Source: a virus (taxonomy: Duplodnaviria > Heunggongvirae > Uroviricota > Caudoviricetes). Taken from it: DNA of 64,000 nucleotides. The DNA lies in IMG/VR virus record IMGVR_UViG_3300029705_000054, positions 65,687 through 129,686 of that record; one strand, 5' to 3'. The position numbers and the translations under genes were made by a program. Of this stretch, positions 25,558 to 50,900 are shown piece after piece. How positions within the stretch are numbered: the stretch's first letter is position 1; the number at the start of each line of letters is the position of its first letter. The notes beneath the pieces were generated by a model. It was not told the DNA's origin and did no database searches. It saw only the letters and a program-made list of their open reading frames with translations.

Positions 25558-27535
25558 TTAGAAGCTTACGCAATTACCGCAACCGCAGTTACGAGTTACT
25601 TGATAATCGTAGCAGCAGTTGGGGTTAGGAACTACATACGCAGGAACGGGACATGGAGTCGAAAGTCTGCGAATAAGTTCTGCAGTCTGAGCTTCTTGAT
25701 TTGCAGTGATAAATGCATTTTGATTTGCTTGTGATGCCGCGAATTTAAGAGACTGATTCTCTGCAGTAAGAGAAGCGATCTTATCTTGCGTCATGAAATC
25801 GATGATTCTATCACCAAGTTTGTCAATAGCTTGAAGCGTATTGCAGTTATAAGTTTGAGCGGCAAAACGATTTTCCATGTTAGCCTTCTCAATGTCGCAG
25901 CAGCAAGCAGCTAATTGTGAAGCAAGAGCGTTAGTATTTATAACGCCTTGAGTTTTTACATCAGCAATTGCGGCGCGAGTGTCACCATTATGTTATCATA
26001 CAAGCTCTTTATCTTGTATTTCTTATAGTTTCCTATAAGATCAGACTATATCTTCATCCTATCTAAATAGGAGTTCGGTACTCGTGTCGAGATTATTGGT
26101 ATCCATCCTCACTCGTTAGTCGTTGAACCTTCCAAGGTACTGTTATTGGAATTCCCTTGGCTCGGCTGCTGATTAGCATATTCACATTTATATTGTCCTT
26201 TATATAAAATCCCATTTTTTAACGCGCTATTGAAACAAGAACCATTTGGCGCACCAATAGCTTTCGCTGCGGCTCCTTTGCTCTCATACCATATTCCATT
26301 TACAATAATAGGAACTTTTGTACTTAAACTAGGAGTGAATGGTTTGGGTCCTTCATCCTCATAATAACATAATTCTCCTTGAGGATTGCCTCCTTTTTTA
26401 CACCATCCTACGACAGTTGTCTCTGCTACTCCATATGCTCTTGCTGCATCAACTAGACCATCATATCGGGTTTTGTTTATTATAATAGGTCGCTTATGTT
26501 TATCTCCAGCTTTTTTTGCAAATTCTGGATTTTTCATAGGATTATTCTTAGACATTCTTTCTCTCTATTCTTGAGCTTTCATTGGGTTATATTTAGACCA
26601 ATATTGTTTCATATCCTCTGTCCATACAAAAGAGTAGCCTCCAGTTCCAGGTTTAGCTAAACTACAATGACATTCACCTTTTTCTTTGTAGTAATAAGTT
26701 AACTCTGCTTCATATTTAAAAGCTTGTTCTTCTGTGAGCTGATCTTTAACAATTCTTGAATCTACATTATAATCCATACAATACTATTTGAATAATTGAT
26801 TTCTGCGCGCCATCTCTCGATATCGTTTCCCGCAGCCTTTGCCTACATAAAAGACATAATTGGTATCAACATTATACCATTCATATACATAAAACTTATT
26901 TTCTTCCATTTTTAATCTCCTTTATTATTCTATATTGAATTATGAACTTCATTGTTCAATATATATTTAAAATTGAGTTTAATGGATGAATAATTTTTGT
27001 CCTTAATTTTTTATTTTGTGAAATTAGCCTTCCAGCAATTCTCCGAATTGTTTTCTAATAGTTACCTATTAGGCTGCCAATGACTTTAGCAGCATTCTGC
27101 GATCTGGTTACCAAGGGCTGTAAATCCAGCTTGGTTTTGATATCCAAGAGTACAGATAGCGTTATCTACTCCGTGGAATCCTGTTGTGATAGCATTACTT
27201 AATGCGTATGTGCTATCAGCTAAACCATAAGTTTGGTTATCAAGTTTAGAAATTAAAGTTTGCTGATCGACTGCAGCGCGAACATCATCTTTAGTTGCAC
27301 AAGCTGATCCACCAAAGTTAGCTCCATAGAAGTAAGGATTTAAAATGTAACCTGCGCCTCCTTCAGAGCCTCCGTTGTTGCCCCAACCATTTCTTCCCCA
27401 TCCAGTGAAAAGAAACAATAAGATGATCCACCAACCGTTCTCACCAAAGCCGTCACCGAAACCTCCATTTCCTCTGTTGCCGCCTGTTACTGCGGCGATG
27501 TCGGATAAAGAATATCCATTTGAAGTGTTGAACAT
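25558..27535 (-). CDS. Gly/Asn/Cys-rich protein split by a group I intron (exons 27535-27088 and 25985-25558; 291 aa spliced)
   Basis: Splicing gives TGC TGC T|GT GAC = ECCCDTRAAI and restores frame (876 nt); hydrophobic WWIILLFLF, CCC motifs, Cys-rich C-terminus. Confidence 0.85.
26109..26909 (-). CDS. intron-encoded GIY-YIG homing endonuclease (2 TAG)
   Basis: FYVYEWY...FYVGKG..KR; TAG at 26784-86 and 26565-67; NPMK repeats and NUMOD1-like tail; ORF runs through the Q and R core elements. Confidence 0.85.
26960..27002 (-). promoter_or_regulatory. bipartite promoter-like motif inside the intron (spacing variant)
   Basis: GGACAA...AATTTTAAATATATA upstream of the intron endonuclease. Confidence 0.45.
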
Positions 27536-27828: not shown

Positions 27829-28314
27829 TTATAGATTAAATGGCGCATTTACTTGCGCTTTTACATTGCGCGCCGGTCCAGGTTCTTGTGATTTTTCCTA
27901 AACCAAACTTGCCTTAAAACTTGCCAAAATTTCATCAAGCTCATCCTTAGTAACATACACCGGCGCCGGCGCAGCTTCACTTGGAGTGCTTAATTCAAAT
28001 ACATTAAAAGCGGCAGTGCCATCCATGTTAATCTGTTTGGTATAAATCTTCTTATTTCCTAAGTCTGGGAAAACATAGAGCGATCCATCTAAATCGATTT
28101 GACTAGCTCTTGCTTCATCAATCGAGACTACTGGACGACCTTTAATGTAATTGCCTTGTGACATCATTATAGGCGCGGTATATTGCTGCTATGGAGCAAC
28201 GCTAGGCGCACTCTAATCTGTCTGTTGAGTCTGCATCATTCTCTGATACTGTGGTTGCATCCCATATCCATACATATAGGGTGTCTGTTGAGTTAGATTA
28301 TTATACATATTCAT
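27829..28314 (-). CDS. hypothetical protein with Gln/Met/Tyr-rich N-terminus (3 TAG)
   Basis: QTQQTD*SAPSVAP*QQY...IKGRPVVSIDEARASQIDLDGS...IYTKQINMDG; RBS AAAGGAG; ends TAA. Confidence 0.7.
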
Positions 28315-28349
28315 TCGAGTTTATTTCTCCTTTCACTCTTGTTCAAATT

Positions 28350-28389
28350 TATATTAAAATTTACTTAATCGCTTTAATAAATTTTGATA
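28350..28389 (-). promoter_or_regulatory. bipartite phage promoter-like motif
   Basis: TATCAA-N28-AATATA heading the six-gene module. Confidence 0.55.
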
Positions 28390-28497
28390 TAAATTTTGAA
28401 ATTTAACAGGAGAATAAAAAAATCCTCATCCATATGATGAGGAAATCATTTTAACAGTAATCAATTAAAATCGTATTAAATTATTTCTTTCAATAAA

Positions 28498-28522
28498 AAA
28501 GGAACTCAAAATGAGTTCCTTT
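28498..28522. terminator. intrinsic terminator after the tail operon
   Basis: AAAGGAACTCA-AAA-TGAGTTCCTTT with A/T tracts. Confidence 0.75.
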
Positions 28523-28529
28523 ATTTTTA

Positions 28530-30740
28530 TTATATTCTTTCAATCGCACGACTTGCGCTTATACTCATTGTTCCATTCGCTGTAAGTGGAACTGTTAAAC
28601 TATTTATAATATAGTCTCCATGAATATCACTATCATCATCATTTACTGTAATACGAGTATTTGGCTCTAAATGATAAATAGGCATACAAGATAAACTAAT
28701 ACTATTATTGTAACTAGTGTACTAATGTAATGCACTGCGTACTAAATCATATGCTGAATTAGTTGCTACGCCTATTCCAATAGCTGATTGAATCGAAGTA
28801 TCTGCAATAATATACTTTTGATTAGCAGATGCATCTTCTGCTTTTTCAACATATAAAATATCTTTTAGCACTGGCGCAAAGACACAGTTTACTTTTGAAT
28901 CATTAATAACTTTTTGTCGGCGGCCTATAGTCTAAACTCCAAACTATTTTATTGATTCTAAACCTGTAACACCTATTGTATTTGATTGTATAGTCTAATA
29001 ACCAGTAACAACAGAATAATTAATAATTATAGAAAGTAATGTATCGGTTGTGTTGTTATATTTTATAATAATATAATTAGCATCATGTTCAATAGAAGTA
29101 ATGCAAGCTGTTTCTTCGCCTTCAATAGAATGTAATTTAAGTATACTATCCATCCCTTCATATGGAATTTTTTCCGTTCCGCTCTATGTGGCAGGTATAA
29201 TTACCGTTGCTGTTTTTTTGGCTAAAATTGGTATAATATTATCTCCGCCAAAAAGATTAGGGTCTATCATATCTATAAAATAAGGTGTTGCATCAGGCTA
29301 ATTATCATAAAAGAAGCCGTTATCACCAGGCTTAATATTATCGGCTTCTATTCCATATTGAACATTATAAATCAAAGGCAAATTCTAAATTAACTCTTTA
29401 GCCAAAGGAGTTTGAACTCCATCTCTAATATACTACATATAGAGTTCTTGGCGCCAGTCCTAAGTCCTTACTTTTTTTGCACTAAGTTTATCATTCTCAG
29501 GCTACACATCCCATACTGCTTTAGCTCTCTATGTACCATCTGCATCCATCTAAAACACAACCCAGTATTCGTTACCAGACTAAGGCGGTGTGTCAATAAT
29601 TAAATGATAACAAATTGGGGTTTTATTTTTAGCAGTCTACCCCCATACAATAATATCATTTTTAATTTCACTATAACGTGGATTATTAGAATAGGAAACA
29701 GTACAATTAGTATTATCAAAAGAGTAGATTGATTTACCTCGCGACTAATTAATAAAATATTTATCATTAATAGCATCTACAAGATTGTTAATAGCACTAC
29801 CTTCATTAAGATAATTTTTAATTTCTCTAAATCTAAAGTTCCCATCTAAATCAAAGAAAAACTCATAATTACCCATAGTATTTTTTATCTTGTTTAAGAC
29901 AGATTCAATAGTTTCACCTGCATTAGAAGTTAACTCTGCTTGACTATCACCTGCGCCATAAGTAAAATTAGTCATTTGATATCCAATAGCATCTCCAAAA
30001 ATATATTCATCAATAGCTCCATCATTTGGCGCCTATCCTAATGTTAACTCATATTTGTTACCATCTATATGCTTTAAATAAGCTGGATAATTTGATGTCC
30101 ATCGAATTGCATTTTTAATCTAAAAGGGAACATCTTCAATAATAATTTTTTCTTTAGGAATACCACCTGCATCATGTACCAGAGATTCAATTAATTTACG
30201 ATTTAAAACAGGCTCAGGATCACCGCCCTCTACATAAATAGGAGAATGCGTTGTCTTAACTGAAAAAGTACCTCCTAAAGAGCCATTCAAAAATGCCATT
30301 TTATCATTAAATTTTAAAGATATTTGAATACCCGAATTATTTGAACTCACAGAAGCATCTGTAATTCCATAAACTCCAACAGGGAACCAAAAGATAGAAT
30401 ATTCTAAATACTATGCGCCAGTATTTTTAATACCAACTTCAATTTCAATCTTTTTATTCATTGATAATTTATTATTAATATCAGTTACTTTATTCATTAT
30501 AAAATTAGGATTTTTACAAATATCTTTATCCGTATAAGTTAACATTGTTAAAGAGCCAGTTCTACGCATTGAAGACTAACCATTTACTGAAATACTACCG
30601 GTAGTGGCAAACCCTTCAATAGATTCAAGAGGTTCGTCATTCATGTTGAATAAAATAATTTTAACATATTGTTCTTTTACTATTAAATTATCAACATATC
30701 TTAATATCTAAGGATTAGATAAGTAGCTATATTTTGCCAT
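28530..30740 (-). CDS. putative distal tail/baseplate hub protein (736 aa, multiple TAG)
   Basis: ORFs 30120-30350 and 29745-29975 are in frame with ATG 30740 and TAA 28530; GSISVNG*SSMRRTGSL; FFFDLDGNFRF. Confidence 0.6.
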
Positions 30741-30742
30741 AA

Positions 30743-32098
30743 TCAACCTCCTATTGACTCCAACTTAAACATGTCATACTAAGGAGCAACTTCTGTCGCA
30801 GTGCAAGAAAAGGAGTAAATTGAGCGCCAAAGCGTCTTCTCAGGGGTCAATGAAATGTTAGATAAATAAACAAAAATATTACCCTCTTGAGTTGATTTAA
30901 ACAATTTAATATCTGGTGTATAAAGAAAGTCTAAAACCTTATCGCGATATTTACGTTCATTAATTACATGATTATCATATGAATCATCGGATAATAATGT
31001 AATTTCATTAAGTAAAGATCTATCATCAGTTAAATCTTCGCCTTCGTAGGAAATCATACCATTAATAGTAAAAGTGCGATATTTTTGTGCGCCGTTGCGT
31101 CTTACAAATGGATAGGCGCCCCCTAATGTGGCAGTGATTACATCTGCTACGTTGCGTTTATAGCTAGATATATCTGGATTAAATCTAATACGTAATGTTT
31201 TATTTTTAGACAATAAAAACATATCATCAAAGACTTTATTTATCACGATATGAGGTTCATTTATAACAGAGGCATCAGGGTTATTATAGTAATAAACATC
31301 ATGAGAACCTTCTAAAAGATAATCGGTTATATCAGTATCAGTGCCTAAACTGTGTTCTTGTTCGTCTATTTTCTTATATATCTCATAACCATTAGGATTA
31401 GATATTTTAATACTATATTCTTTTTCAAAAGAATAAGTAATGGGCGCCAAAGATTCGTTTGATGCCGTCCATTCTCTTAAGCCAGATCCAGAATATACAT
31501 ATCCTTTAAAAGTTTTATAAGTATATTGATAATTAATAGCGGTTCCAACTAAATTATATGATAAAATAAACTTAAAATCTGTAGGTAGAGAAGAATAAAA
31601 TTCCTAAGTTTTTCCCGCACAAGTAAATGCAAAATAAGTAATAAAATCTTCCTCAGATAAACTATCTTGTCCTGTTATAGATATTGTATTATTACGACCA
31701 ATATTCGTCCAACTTATATCTAAACTAGGAATTTGAGTCAAATAATTAAATCTCACTCCAGTACTCGCTTCTGAGTGTAAAGATTTATTATTAGTATTTT
31801 TTAACCAATCCTTCCATCCTTCTACAGGAGTAGTAGAAACAGAAGTGTCTATTAAATATAGATAAATAAGTATATCTTTAAAACCATCTATATAATTAGC
31901 TTTAATACTATTATTAGAACTGGTTAAAAGTTGCCAATCTATGTTGCCAGTTTCAATGTCTTCTTGTTTTATTAAAATTTTATCTTTGTTAGAGATTATT
32001 TTGTTTATTAAATTAAAATAAACAGTTATACCCTAATTAGTGAAAACTGTTCCTTTTGCAGTATCAATAATAGGTGGATAAAGTGTTTGTGTTGCCAT
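30743..32098 (-). CDS. putative distal tail protein (451 aa, multiple TAG)
   Basis: MATQTLYPPIID...; ORF 30779-31450 in frame (TLGGAYPFVRRNG, KLFKSTQEGNI); ends TGA. Confidence 0.6.
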
Positions 32099-47900: not shown

Positions 47901-50900
47901 ATCAATAGATAATTCTCCAGTAATAGGATCGCGCTCCATATATGATGCTAATTCAGGATATTTAGTTAATAAATCTAAGACTTGATTATTAATATCTGTT
48001 AAAGCCTTATTCCATTCAACCGTTCCTTCAGTTAAATCTTCTAAAGCAGTTTTAGCATTTTCTAGATTTGAAATAGAAGACTATAAATTATCCCATTCTT
48101 GTTGTGTGGCTTGTAATTGTGCCTATTGAGCTTTTGCAGCTTCTGTTGCTTGCTCAAAAGCTTTTTGCTCTTTATTCTAAACAGCAATGCCGATTGCTGC
48201 AGTTCCTGTAATAATCGCGGCCACTGCTGCAAATGCTGCAATATAAGGCGCCACCGCTCCAATAGCTTGTCCAATACCAGCAGCGCCACCTTTTGCTGCG
48301 CCTGCCTTGGCTCCTGCGCCACCTGCTTTCCATCCTTTAACGCCTTTTAAATCAGTGCCTTTCCAGCCTTCTTTGAATCCACTACCAAAATCTTTAAATT
48401 TATTTTTCCCACTATCAAAAATATCTTTCGTTGTATCTTTAAAAGAAGGATTATCAGTATTATTAGCAATTTTTTTAGCAGCAGCATTTTTTAAAATTGC
48501 TATAGTTTCATTATCTAATGCTTCACCGTTTAAAATATGATTATTAATTTCTTCGCGTAGTTCATCATTTATTTCATCCCCGGCTAAATCTACTAAACAT
48601 TTGGCTGCCCACAGTTTAGTTTCTGCATTAGCTTCTTTATCTTTTAATGTTGTTAAAATTTGTGTTAAAGCAATTTCTTGAGCAGTCTAAATATTTTTTT
48701 CTGCAAGTTTAGCATTATGGGTACTATATAATTTAATTAGACCTGTAATCAATGGACTTAATAATGATATTGTAGTAACAGTATTCTATAATGTCTATAA
48801 CAGTTTTTCTCCAACAGTTAAATCTTCATTTTTCCAAATAGAACCTAAATTAGACAATATTGTCAACGCAGAAATTGCCATACTAATATTAGATGTTAAT
48901 TGAATAAATGAATTAATTTGCTTTTCAAGGTTAGCTTTACGCAATGCCATTTCAGCAGCCACACCAAACTAATCCATAGTAGATTTTGCCTCAACCCCCG
49001 CTGCGCCAAGCTCACGTAAAGATTGCTACATCTTTTTAGCTTCTGTATTGCCCTTGCCCATTGCGCGTTTAGTTAAACGCTCAATTTCAGACACGGCTGT
49101 CTATATTTGATCAAACTATTCTTGAGTAATTTTTGTATCTTTATTAAATCCTTTTAATACTGACGCATATTTATTAAAATGAGTTAAGTCCTATCCAGAA
49201 AGTAATCCAGACTATGAAATTTTATTAACATCATTTAACGTATGCTGAAGTTCGTCATTAAACTTTTTAACCGCAGGGCTTCCTTCTTGCTTAAATTTAT
49301 CCCATGATGTATTGTTAATAATTTTTGTTAAATTCTATGCACGTTTTATAGTTTCGTTATATGCAGCCTAAACATTCTCTAACTCAAAATATAATCTCTT
49401 ATAAGAATTTTCAGCAGAAGCATCCATATATTCAACACTTGAATTTTCCATTCTTATAAAATCTTCATTTGAAAATGGATTTTCACGAGCATATTCAGAT
49501 AAACGATTTATATAAAGCTATGCAGACTCTTCTGTGACAGAGGATTTACTTCCAGCAGGAGGCATATTAAAGCCACGCTATAAAATTTTTGTATACTAAT
49601 CTCCTATTGTAGTAGGATCATAAGCTTCTATAGATTTCTCGTATTCATTAGCTGCATTTGCAAAAGCATTAATAGTATCTGTTAAATTATTAAAAGTTTC
49701 ATTTGTAATAATACCCTATTGCTTTAATAATACTAAATTTTCTCTTAAAGCGCTAATTTTTTCATCATAATCAGAAGTCAAAGTATCCCCATTTAAACGA
49801 ATTTCTTTAATATTCTCTAATAATCCACGCAGCGATTGAGCAGACTGCTATGCATTTTGAATGTTAGTAACAAATGTAGCCATGCCAGATGCTAAACTAC
49901 CAGAAAATAATTTAGTCATTACTGGTAAAATAGCCATTAATAAAGTACCGCCGCCCCCTATTGATTCAATAGCATTACCAAAAAATGTAACAAAATCAGT
50001 TAAAATATCAATAAGATTATTAGTACTTTTTGAATCAAACAAAGCATCATATACACGCTCACCTGCCGCGCTTAATTGTTCTAAATGAGCTTCAACAGAA
50101 TCTAAATATTTTTCTTGTTGTTCTTGTAAAAATCCGGTTGCAGTAGCAGAATCTCGTACAGACTTCTCATACATACTCCAGTTTTCAAATAACGCTAAAA
50201 GATTATTATACTGACGAGTACCAGCCATTGTCTATGCCAATGAAATCTATTGTTCACGCGACAATGTATTCCATTTACTACCAATTTCCTCAACAACGCT
50301 ACCCATATCGCGTAGTTTATTATTCGCATCTAAAACATCAAAGCCCAATTGCGACATTTGTTTTGTGTATTCTCCAAGAGTAGCTTCTGCATCTAAGCCC
50401 GCTTCAATATCACTAATACGAGCAAAAATGGTTTTAAATGCTGTACCAACAGACTCAGGCGCCTGGCGCGTAACGGAAATAACAGTTGCTAACATTGCAT
50501 TTAACTAATCAATATTAACTCCCATATTGCTAGCCGCAGAAGCAACTTTAGACATACCAGTAGAGAGCTCTTCTAAGTCGGCTGCGGTTGTTGCTGCTAC
50601 AACTGCAATTTTATCGATATAAGCTTCAGCTTCTTGCGCCTATACCTTATAACCATTCCAAACCGCGGTTAATTGTTCAGAAACCATTTCTGTGCTTTGT
50701 TTCGTAACATTTGCAACTTTCAGCGTTGTTTCTGTTCTAGCTCTTACCTCTTCTTCAGATAAACCTTGTTGGTAATATATTAAAGCAGCATTGGCATAAT
50801 CTTTAGTACTTTTACCTAATTCCCTAGCCGCTTTATTTGCTTGACGCGCAAATTTCTCCATTGACTCTGCGCTTTTATCAGTAACAAGCATAATATTGTT

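Follow-up and report, generated by a model that had tools for sequence, protein, structure and literature searches.

The 64,000-nucleotide (nt) stretch analysed here, referred to as the window, corresponds to positions 65,687 to 129,686 of the viral record IMGVR_UViG_3300029705_000054. On its minus strand, between positions 25558 and 27535, the standard genetic code shows five junk open reading frames (ORFs). A previous reading made from the letters of the DNA, hereafter the sequence-only reading, had placed a group I intron here, within an uncharacterised gene outside DNA metabolism. We found that the actual content of the locus is a gene of 291 amino acids (aa) and the gene of a 266-aa endonuclease. 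The interruption is very probably a mobile, IA-like group I intron. Its host is a late gene, and the phage, a gut phage of 135 kb whose source habitat is herbivore faeces, decodes TAG as glutamine (Gln). The intron is genuine, mobile and probably active; it carries a recoded GIY-YIG endonuclease and lies in a host gene family new for such elements. The 266-codon GIY-YIG ORF, the TAG recoding and a second, empty target with the same triple-cysteine (CCC) motif in exon 2 were all absent from the sequence-only reading.

Exons and splice junction of the host gene

The host gene lies in two exons on either side of the intron, as follows.

27088..27535, minus strand: exon 1 of the host gene, 149 codons plus 1 nt, ending ...AECC plus T (from translation)
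25986..27087, minus strand: IA-like group I intron of 1102 nt, whose P5 loop contains the endonuclease ORF (from Rfam RF00028, the helix map, covariation and intron-less alleles)
25558..25985, minus strand: exon 2 of the host gene, GT plus 141 codons and a TAA stop (from translation)

The gene starts at 27535, and exon 1 ends with ...GAA TGC TGC T at 27088, where the first two bases of the intron complete an in-frame TAA; exon 2 opens with GT GAC ACT... and runs to a TAA stop at 25558. Joining 27088 to 25985 creates a cysteine codon (T^GT, the caret marking the splice site) and a frame of 291 codons (149 + 1 + 141 aa), whose product reads ...NQIAECC^C DTRAAIADV... across the junction. This agrees with the earlier claim that splicing rebuilds both a CCC motif and a 291-aa ORF. 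The two exons matched adjoining parts of the phrog_16490 profile (exon 1, positions 5-139, E = 3e-22; exon 2, positions 127-278, E = 3e-23), and the full-length profile match spans the splice junction. A hidden Markov model (HMM) of the family, which we built from 120 uninterrupted homologs, gave the same picture: exon 1 covers HMM positions 3-135 and stops at the second C of CCC. The insertion site is conserved, as had been proposed, since the motif (Q-L-x-x-CCC-x-T-Q-R-A-I-D-G-V) is invariant in 120/120 of these homologs.

The description of the host gene as uncharacterised and outside DNA metabolism was also borne out, as it belongs to phrog_16490, has no Pfam domain and is located at the distal end of the tail/late module. 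The family comprises at least 8000 proteins of ~240-310 aa from gut metagenomes and Firmicutes metagenome-assembled genomes, all of them unnamed, and Pfam searches returned no domain in either exon or in the family members.

Alleles with and without the intron

Intron-less alleles were sought and found in L005-L009, L060, L077 and L081, and in each of them exactly one Cys codon separates the exon 1 match from the exon 2 match, so that homologs align across the predicted junction. The close relatives L005, L006 and L007, located by a scan of viral contigs on contigs of 123-135 kb, encode host proteins 85-96% identical to that of the window in pairwise alignments. At the DNA level, the intron-less joint ...TGCTGCT^GCGACACTCG... 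corresponds to ...TGCTGCT^GTGACACTCG... in the spliced window, and the intron-less alleles thereby fix both intron boundaries to the nucleotide. Contigs from four other DNA runs, identical to the window, span both boundaries. Two of those four samples also hold diverged relatives with intron-less joints (25983 to 27097), carrying an 11-nt junction like that of L007.

Intron-bearing alleles persist across several diverged lineages and samples; most alleles, those of the closest relatives included, are without the intron. As judged from these allele comparisons, the intron is a sporadic mobile insertion. The sequence-only reading had argued that retention of the intron marks the CCC region as functionally important. 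Retention is the wrong word for an element that most alleles lack. What speaks for a real role of the gene and its cassette is conservation throughout the family; the presence of the intron does not.

Structure and covariation of the ribozyme

The intron was folded into the following elements, all 12 helices being fully paired in the window (12/12).

27093..27088 with 27078..27073, minus strand: P1, exon GCUGCU with internal guide GGCAGC, U.G at the 5' splice site
27084..27080 with 25985..25981, minus strand: P10, guide GUCAU in the P1 loop with exon 2 GUGAC (from pairing)
27072..27055, minus strand: P2 hairpin, CUAAUAG-GUAA-CUAUUAG
27047..27043 with 26078..26074, minus strand: P3, UUCGG/CCGAA
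27038..27032 with 26172..26166, minus strand: P4, the 'P' element with P4'/Q (helix map)
27029..27027 with 26177..26175, minus strand: P5 (helix map)
27022..27018 with 26185..26181, minus strand: P5a (helix map)
26160..26132, minus strand: P6 (helix map)
26121..26117 with 26048..26044, minus strand: P7 (R/S), GACUA/UAGUC
26115..26088, minus strand: P7.1, CGAG/CUCG
26072..26057, minus strand: P8 (helix map)
26039..26022, minus strand: P9 (helix map)
26019..25998, minus strand: P9.1 (helix map)
25986, minus strand: guanosine (omega-G) that ends the intron at the 3' splice site, shared by every aligned intron

The elements that the sequence-only reading had listed (P1 with its U.G pair, P10, P3, P7 and the terminal G) were thus all recovered, in a core that covaries. 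The 5' strands of the ribozyme (27018..27047) are separated from its 3' half (25998..26185) by the ORF in the P5 loop. Three of the four P7.1 pairs covary, and the presence of this extension makes subgroup IA a candidate assignment.

A default Rfam scan of the whole window at gathering thresholds returned nothing. When E-value thresholds were applied to positions 25800-27300, the Intron_gpI model (RF00028) matched 26218..26022 with 45.8 bits (E = 4e-10), so that an Infernal-type scan, as the sequence-only reading had suggested, does recover a group I core, at a score below the gathering cutoff. Alignment to the model was good for the R element (GGUUCAACGACUA), the S element (GAAGAUAUAGUC), P8 and P9. 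The model's 5' third had to be fitted to ORF sequence, the real P1-P5 being located ~850 nt upstream of the matched stretch. A blastn search of 50,697 phage records identified 169 that share the P7-P9 core; most of these matches cover only the last ~75 nt (P7'-P9), at 85-90% identity, and come from phages of Staphylococcus, Bacillus and Clostridium. At E <= 0.001, Rfam missed the introns of CPQ4, phiCP13O, CD1801 and pCD1602_4, for which sequence alignment was used instead.

The main covariation test was conducted on alignment A4, which contains five full-length introns (window, L090, L095, L096 and CPQ4). In A4, 97.0% of cells were paired, compared with 31-43% when the 3' partners were slid; both sides had changed in 17/68 pairs, compared with 1-4 after sliding, and the observed covariation score was reached by none of 500 shuffles. 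A second alignment made with MAFFT, A2, consists of six more distant 3' halves, including the introns of the phiCP13O tape-measure and CD1801 portal genes. Here 89.4% of cells were paired, against at most 47% when slid, and both sides had changed in 21/35 pairs; A2 mis-registers P6 and P8 of the distant introns, which lowers their paired percentages.

Individual helices illustrate the pattern. The U.G splice pair occurs in all five introns (5/5), and P1 pair 5 is C-G in the window and U-A in CPQ4. In CPQ4 and phiCP13O, P2 has different sequences that still form perfect hairpins with a GUAA loop, and P4 of phiCP13O (UUCGGUA/UACCGAG) has 5/7 pairs altered yet paired. P3 and P7 are invariant across the introns, so pairing there is uninformative. 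Alleles that are saturated at synonymous sites (dS, the synonymous divergence, about 1 or more) still share 84-93% identity in their ribozyme segments, so the RNA is itself constrained.

A recoded endonuclease gene within the intron

Under translation table 11, the intron contains three small ORFs in one frame, separated by two TAG codons. Reading TAG as sense joins them into a single gene.

26109..26909, minus strand: 266-codon I-TevI-like GIY-YIG homing endonuclease ORF (801 nt), read with TAG as sense (from PHROG matches and homologs)
26786..26784, minus strand: in-frame TAG at codon 42 of the endonuclease ORF
26567..26565, minus strand: in-frame TAG at codon 115 of the endonuclease ORF

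The ORF is preceded by a Shine-Dalgarno sequence (AGGAG), and its 3' end crosses P5', P4', P6 and P7 before stopping at a UGA in P7.1. Its product matches homing-endonuclease families of PHROG (phrog_314, E = 9e-8), and 1126 homologs were collected, many of which contain PF20987, PF07453 or PF01541 (I-TevI DNA-binding, NUMOD1 and GIY-YIG domains); the CPQ4 homolog gave sub-threshold Pfam matches to GIY-YIG and NUMOD1. The GIY and YIG motifs (Y7-V-Y9 and Y21-V-G23) and the catalytic Arg and Glu (R29 and E67) are present, at columns conserved in at least 110/119 homologs. TAG115 aligns with Q in 118/119 homologs, and TAG42 falls at a variable polar position. The closest homologs, 65-74% identical and found in the same gene order in related contigs, are translated only when TAG is read as Q ('with_TAG=Q'). 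Among six recoded alleles, we counted 1-7 in-frame TAGs each, zero TAA or TGA codons and zero frameshifts; TAG and CAA/CAG swap at the same columns, and the ratio of nonsynonymous to synonymous divergence (dN/dS) of 0.09-0.20 indicates purifying selection. By these sequence criteria, the endonuclease is a maintained gene that depends on TAG-to-Gln decoding.

Among the 19 tRNAs of the complete phage genome (135,189 bp, with direct terminal repeats), one, at genome position 48794-48868, has the anticodon CUA. When TAG is read as sense, the minus-strand late region shows ORFs of 3142 aa with 82 TAGs, 1654 aa with 32 and 738 aa with 20. On the basis of these TAG-rich intact ORFs, the tRNA-CUA and the interchange of TAG and Q in the endonuclease columns, the phage is assigned a code in which TAG is glutamine (code 15-like). 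The host gene (25558-27535, minus strand) and its partner gene are free of in-frame TAG, so that their translation could already proceed before the code switch; the adjacent late genes at 27829-32098 (minus strand) have 2-20 TAGs each.

Two target sites in one gene

The protein of the window contains two CCC motifs, ...NQIAECCC DTRAAIADV..., which is split by the intron, and ...SQLAACCC DIEKANMENRF..., which is intact. In the spliced mRNA the two copies lie 29 codons (87 nt) apart, and two copies were also found in 8/120 homologs.

25893..25905, minus strand: second, empty target TGCTGCT^GCGACA (...QLAACCCDIEK), the copy that is occupied in L090-L098

In L090-L098, representing at least five related recoded phages, the first copy is intact and a homologous intron sits in the second (...SSQLAACC^C DLEKATMEDRF...); in L005-L007 both copies are empty. 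All target sites of the two-copy gene share TG(C/T)TGCT^G(C/T)GA(C/T). In each intron the P10 guide is complementary to its own exon 2, and it covaries with that exon in L090, L095, L096 and CPQ4.

Window: P10 guide GUCAU, exon 2 start GUGAC
L090: P10 guide UCUAAAUUAU, exon 2 start GUGAUUUAGA
L095: P10 guide AGAUUAU, exon 2 start GUGAUCU
L096: P10 guide UCGU, exon 2 start GCGA
CPQ4: P10 guide UCGCA, exon 2 start UGCGA

The codon at the 5' splice site is less constant. It is TAA in the window, L090 and L094, and TAG, which is sense there, in L095 and L096; in CPQ4 the first stop comes three codons into the intron. The in-frame TAA to which the sequence-only reading had drawn attention is thus present in the window, but the exact position of the stop is not conserved. 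In L095 (2339/2340) and L096 (2341/2342), where the splice codon is TAG, ribosomes that translate unspliced RNA after the code switch would proceed five codons into P1/P2 and then meet a TAA. Introns of this kind often have an early in-frame stop, whose proposed effect is to stall ribosomes and give the core time to fold (PMC3984707).

A proposed life cycle of the intron

We propose that the pre-mRNA would be spliced by two transesterifications, for which guanosine triphosphate (GTP) is the initiator and P1 and P10 are the guides. Ribosomes would halt at the in-frame stop of the splice site (TAA in the window), which would let the core fold. The endonuclease would be made only once the suppressor tRNA is active, and would then cut intron-less alleles of co-infecting relatives, whose repair would copy the intron in (homing).

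An extension of this proposal, which we put forward tentatively as a possibility that falls short of an even chance, is that the TAG codons of the endonuclease serve as a timer, and that the intron lineage has moved between the CCC sites and to the offset site of CPQ4, one codon away, re-tuning P10 at each. Ribosomes translating before the suppressor is available would stop at codon 42, far from the core, so that the late transcript could fold and splice; after the code switch the endonuclease would be made and homing would occur. In the main proposal, either ectopic homing at a similar site or reverse splicing would have produced the switch between CCC repeats and the one-codon offset in CPQ4, after which the P10 guide would have adapted to the new exon. 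Ectopic integration of introns through relaxed endonuclease specificity or reverse splicing is the textbook explanation for such changes of site (Hausner et al. 2014, PMC3984707).

Alternative explanations

Several points weigh against the mobile, active intron proposed here. Its splicing, the timing of that splicing and its autonomy are predictions from the DNA sequence. The Rfam score of 45.8 bits is under the gathering cutoff of 50, because the 801-nt ORF occupies the P5 loop; this is a limit of the model with ORF-bearing introns, and no feature is missing. P5 is weak, its first pair being unpaired in 4/5 introns, and P7.2 did not resolve. Because the window sequence served as the template for the structure, the contrast in paired cells with the slid controls is inflated; the counts of compensatory changes are unaffected. 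The endonuclease of the window has no Pfam match to GIY-YIG, NUMOD or I-TevI DNA-binding domains at E <= 0.1, and its identity is based on PHROG matches and homologs rather than on a Pfam match of its own. Finally, synonymous sites are saturated in both the host genes and the endonucleases, a degree of divergence that hides which way the site switch went and by which mechanism.

The alternative that survives best is that the intron is real but not autocatalytic and would splice only with the help of a protein from the phage or its host, or under in vivo conditions. There is precedent in some Bastillevirinae introns, and four of eight validated phage introns were found to be spliced only in infected cells (Weglewska et al. 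2025, PMC11878797). Moreover, the overlap of the ORF with P5', P4', P6 and P7 means that translation could disturb folding, and P5 is weak. Nevertheless, the core helices, the U.G pair, omega-G and P10 are intact and covarying, and the core is close to those of Twort-like and SPO1-like phage introns, which suggests a competent ribozyme; we regard a dependence of this kind as rather unlikely, though to be taken seriously.

It is very improbable that the element is a decayed, non-splicing remnant, with the host gene a pseudogene or expressed only as a 149-aa N-terminal fragment. The in-frame TAA at the splice site, the low Rfam score and the three pieces into which the standard code breaks the intron ORF are what such decay would look like. 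However, neither exon is damaged or out of phase, and strong purifying selection acts on both (dN/dS about 0.03-0.1). The ribozyme has changed less than synonymous sites and shows compensatory changes, the apparent breaks in the ORF are TAGs at glutamine positions in a phage where TAG is Gln, and intron alleles persist in several diverged lineages and samples.

Reassembling split genes occur in some T-even phages. That a free-standing endonuclease gene has split the host gene here, with no functional intron and with halves that are translated separately and reassemble, is the least credible reading of all: GIY-YIG endonucleases are often free-standing in phages and this ORF has its own Shine-Dalgarno sequence, but the split falls inside a codon (phase 1), exon 2 offers no start codon in frame at its 5' end (an ATG does occur at the 3' splice site, in another frame), and about 300 nt of flanking non-coding RNA form a covarying group I core.

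Relation to known introns

Among known systems, the T4 td intron with I-TevI offers a close parallel to the mobile intron proposed for the window. Both have a P7.1 extension, and a group IA architecture like that of td is likely for the present intron. In both, a peripheral loop encodes an endonuclease of the GIY-YIG, I-TevI type; NUMOD and I-TevI DNA-binding modules are predicted for the present enzyme from its homologs. They also share an ORF with its own ribosome-binding site, an in-frame stop near the 5' splice site and a target in a conserved motif. For td, delayed translation of I-TevI is needed for efficient splicing (Gibb and Edgell 2010, as cited in PMC3984707). The present intron differs in that its host is a late gene of unassigned function rather than thymidylate synthase, and in that its ORF sits in the P5 loop and overlaps the core; td is of group IA2. 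Furthermore, expression of its ORF would be gated by TAG codons in a recoded phage.

The principle of a recoded intron endonuclease is already known from the TGA-recoded Agate phages, in which the endonuclease of a group I intron carries the phage's reassigned stop codon in frame and delayed production has been proposed (Borges et al., bioRxiv 10.1101/2021.08.26.457843). In those phages, TGA is Trp and the host is an early gene, whereas here TAG is Gln and the host is a late gene that itself lacks TAG; in addition, the TAGs described here have been kept over six diverged alleles under purifying selection.

Phage introns mostly occur in genes of nucleotide and DNA metabolism (PMC11878797). A structural host gene is unusual, not unprecedented, since Twort orf142, the phiCP13O tape-measure gene and the CD1801 portal gene are virion structural genes of Firmicutes phages with group I introns; Twort orf142 is the tail tube protein (PMC11878797). 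The P7-P9 cores of the Twort orf142 and clostridial phage introns are 74-90% identical to that of the window. The host genes differ, and the Twort introns, unlike the present one, have no ORFs. In phiCP13O (L086, gp23/gp24) a related intron appears to split the tape-measure/minor tail gene, and in Clostridioides phage CD1801 (L087, portal plus 'hypothetical') the portal gene, the halves being annotated in both cases as separate coding sequences.

Another parallel is Clostridium perfringens phage CPQ4 (MZ401006.1), in which the intron (L001:2373-3402) occupies the orthologous gene, its ribozyme is 59-76% identical and its GIY-YIG ORF is homologous; splicing restores SSCCCETN. CPQ4 differs in being a 40-kb phage with the standard code; in its endonuclease ORF, TAG occurs only as the stop codon, right behind P4'. 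Only one CCC motif is present in the CPQ4 host gene, and relative to this motif the intron is inserted one codon (3 nt) further upstream (TGT T^GT TGC), again behind GCUGUU. In the GenBank record of CPQ4, exon 1 (run into the intron) and the endonuclease are separate hypothetical proteins, and exon 2 (L001 3403-3707) is unannotated.

Group I introns of rDNA, found at two positions of one gene, likewise use alternative sites that share a short P1-complementary sequence (Hausner et al. 2014, PMC3984707), and have been taken as circumstantial evidence for reverse splicing or ectopic homing (PMC3984707). The sites described here differ in being paralogous repeats in a protein-coding phage gene, with a P10 guide visibly adapted to each.

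Further group I introns were observed nearby or in the same material. A second one in the same genome (L003:1499-1854; G000:C1:63865-64218), about 1.5 kb before the window start, scored 75-78 bits, above the Rfam cutoff; it splits a P-loop ATPase gene, with a LAGLIDADG-type ORF (L003 931..1566) between the halves. In runs X3-X6, a 22.8-kb contig at ~10-fold higher depth contains a core related to window 26041-26180 with 20 differences in 140 nt and joins 26180 to 26863, and thus represents another intron of the lineage, in a different, more abundant phage of the same samples. A human faecal phage scaffold (L085, MT837385.1) has group I matches at 1740-1962 and 2273-2522 (32 and 77 bits), within about 800 nt.

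Host protein and its partner

In the host protein, the N-terminus is Gly-rich and includes a hydrophobic helix, the C-terminus is Cys-rich, and the sequence also contains Cys motifs and long predicted helices. AlphaFold2, given a 52-sequence alignment, returned mostly long helices with a predicted local distance difference test (pLDDT) score of 50, unusable for a fold search, and matches in the ESM Atlas were to unnamed viral clusters only. A PDB profile search of the family (alignment A3, positions 41-165) gave sub-significant matches only (E about 0.05), all to influenza haemagglutinin HA2. The resemblance involves the Gly-rich hydrophobic N-terminus, the long helix and a 'TQxAIDG' motif; we rejected it as evidence of function and took it as a compositional or coiled-coil resemblance. 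It is probably the source of the automatic annotations 'spike protein/glycoprotein' and 'viral fibre' in crAss-like cr116_1 and Bacteroides phage C3_41T2LP.

25110..25529, minus strand: conserved downstream partner gene, phrog_20016, BclA/ExsFA-like TNF/C1q-type jelly roll (AlphaFold2 pLDDT 91, Foldseek)

The model of the partner matches the C-terminal domains of F-BclA, ExsFA, BxpB and BclA (Foldseek E about 1e-7, template modelling score 0.72-0.78). These BclA-type matches are TNF/C1q-like trimeric knobs, and cyanophage tail-fibre tips appear lower in the Foldseek list. It is a reasonable guess that host and partner proteins would form a stalk-plus-knob fibre. C. perfringens phages such as CPQ4, HMD-PC1 and CPD1 also have this cassette.

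Significance

What is new here is a gene with two CCC repeats in which a homologous intron occupies either one, with its P10 guide matched to its own exon. The three allelic states (empty, first repeat and second repeat), together with the matching guides, provide a testable system for how introns reach new sites. The finding adds a host gene family outside nucleotide and DNA metabolism to those known for phage group I introns, and it bears on annotation, as the CPQ4 intron and the tape-measure and portal introns of phiCP13O and CD1801, of the same lineage, are likewise unannotated. The six TAG-bearing endonuclease alleles under purifying selection indicate that selfish elements adopt the alternative code of their phage, supporting and extending the observation made in Agate phages (Borges et al.). 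The CCC motif emerges as the most constrained spot of a very widespread and unstudied gut-phage protein. If the timer and the site moves were true, the locus would document how, in nature, a group I intron has transposed ectopically within a protein-coding gene.

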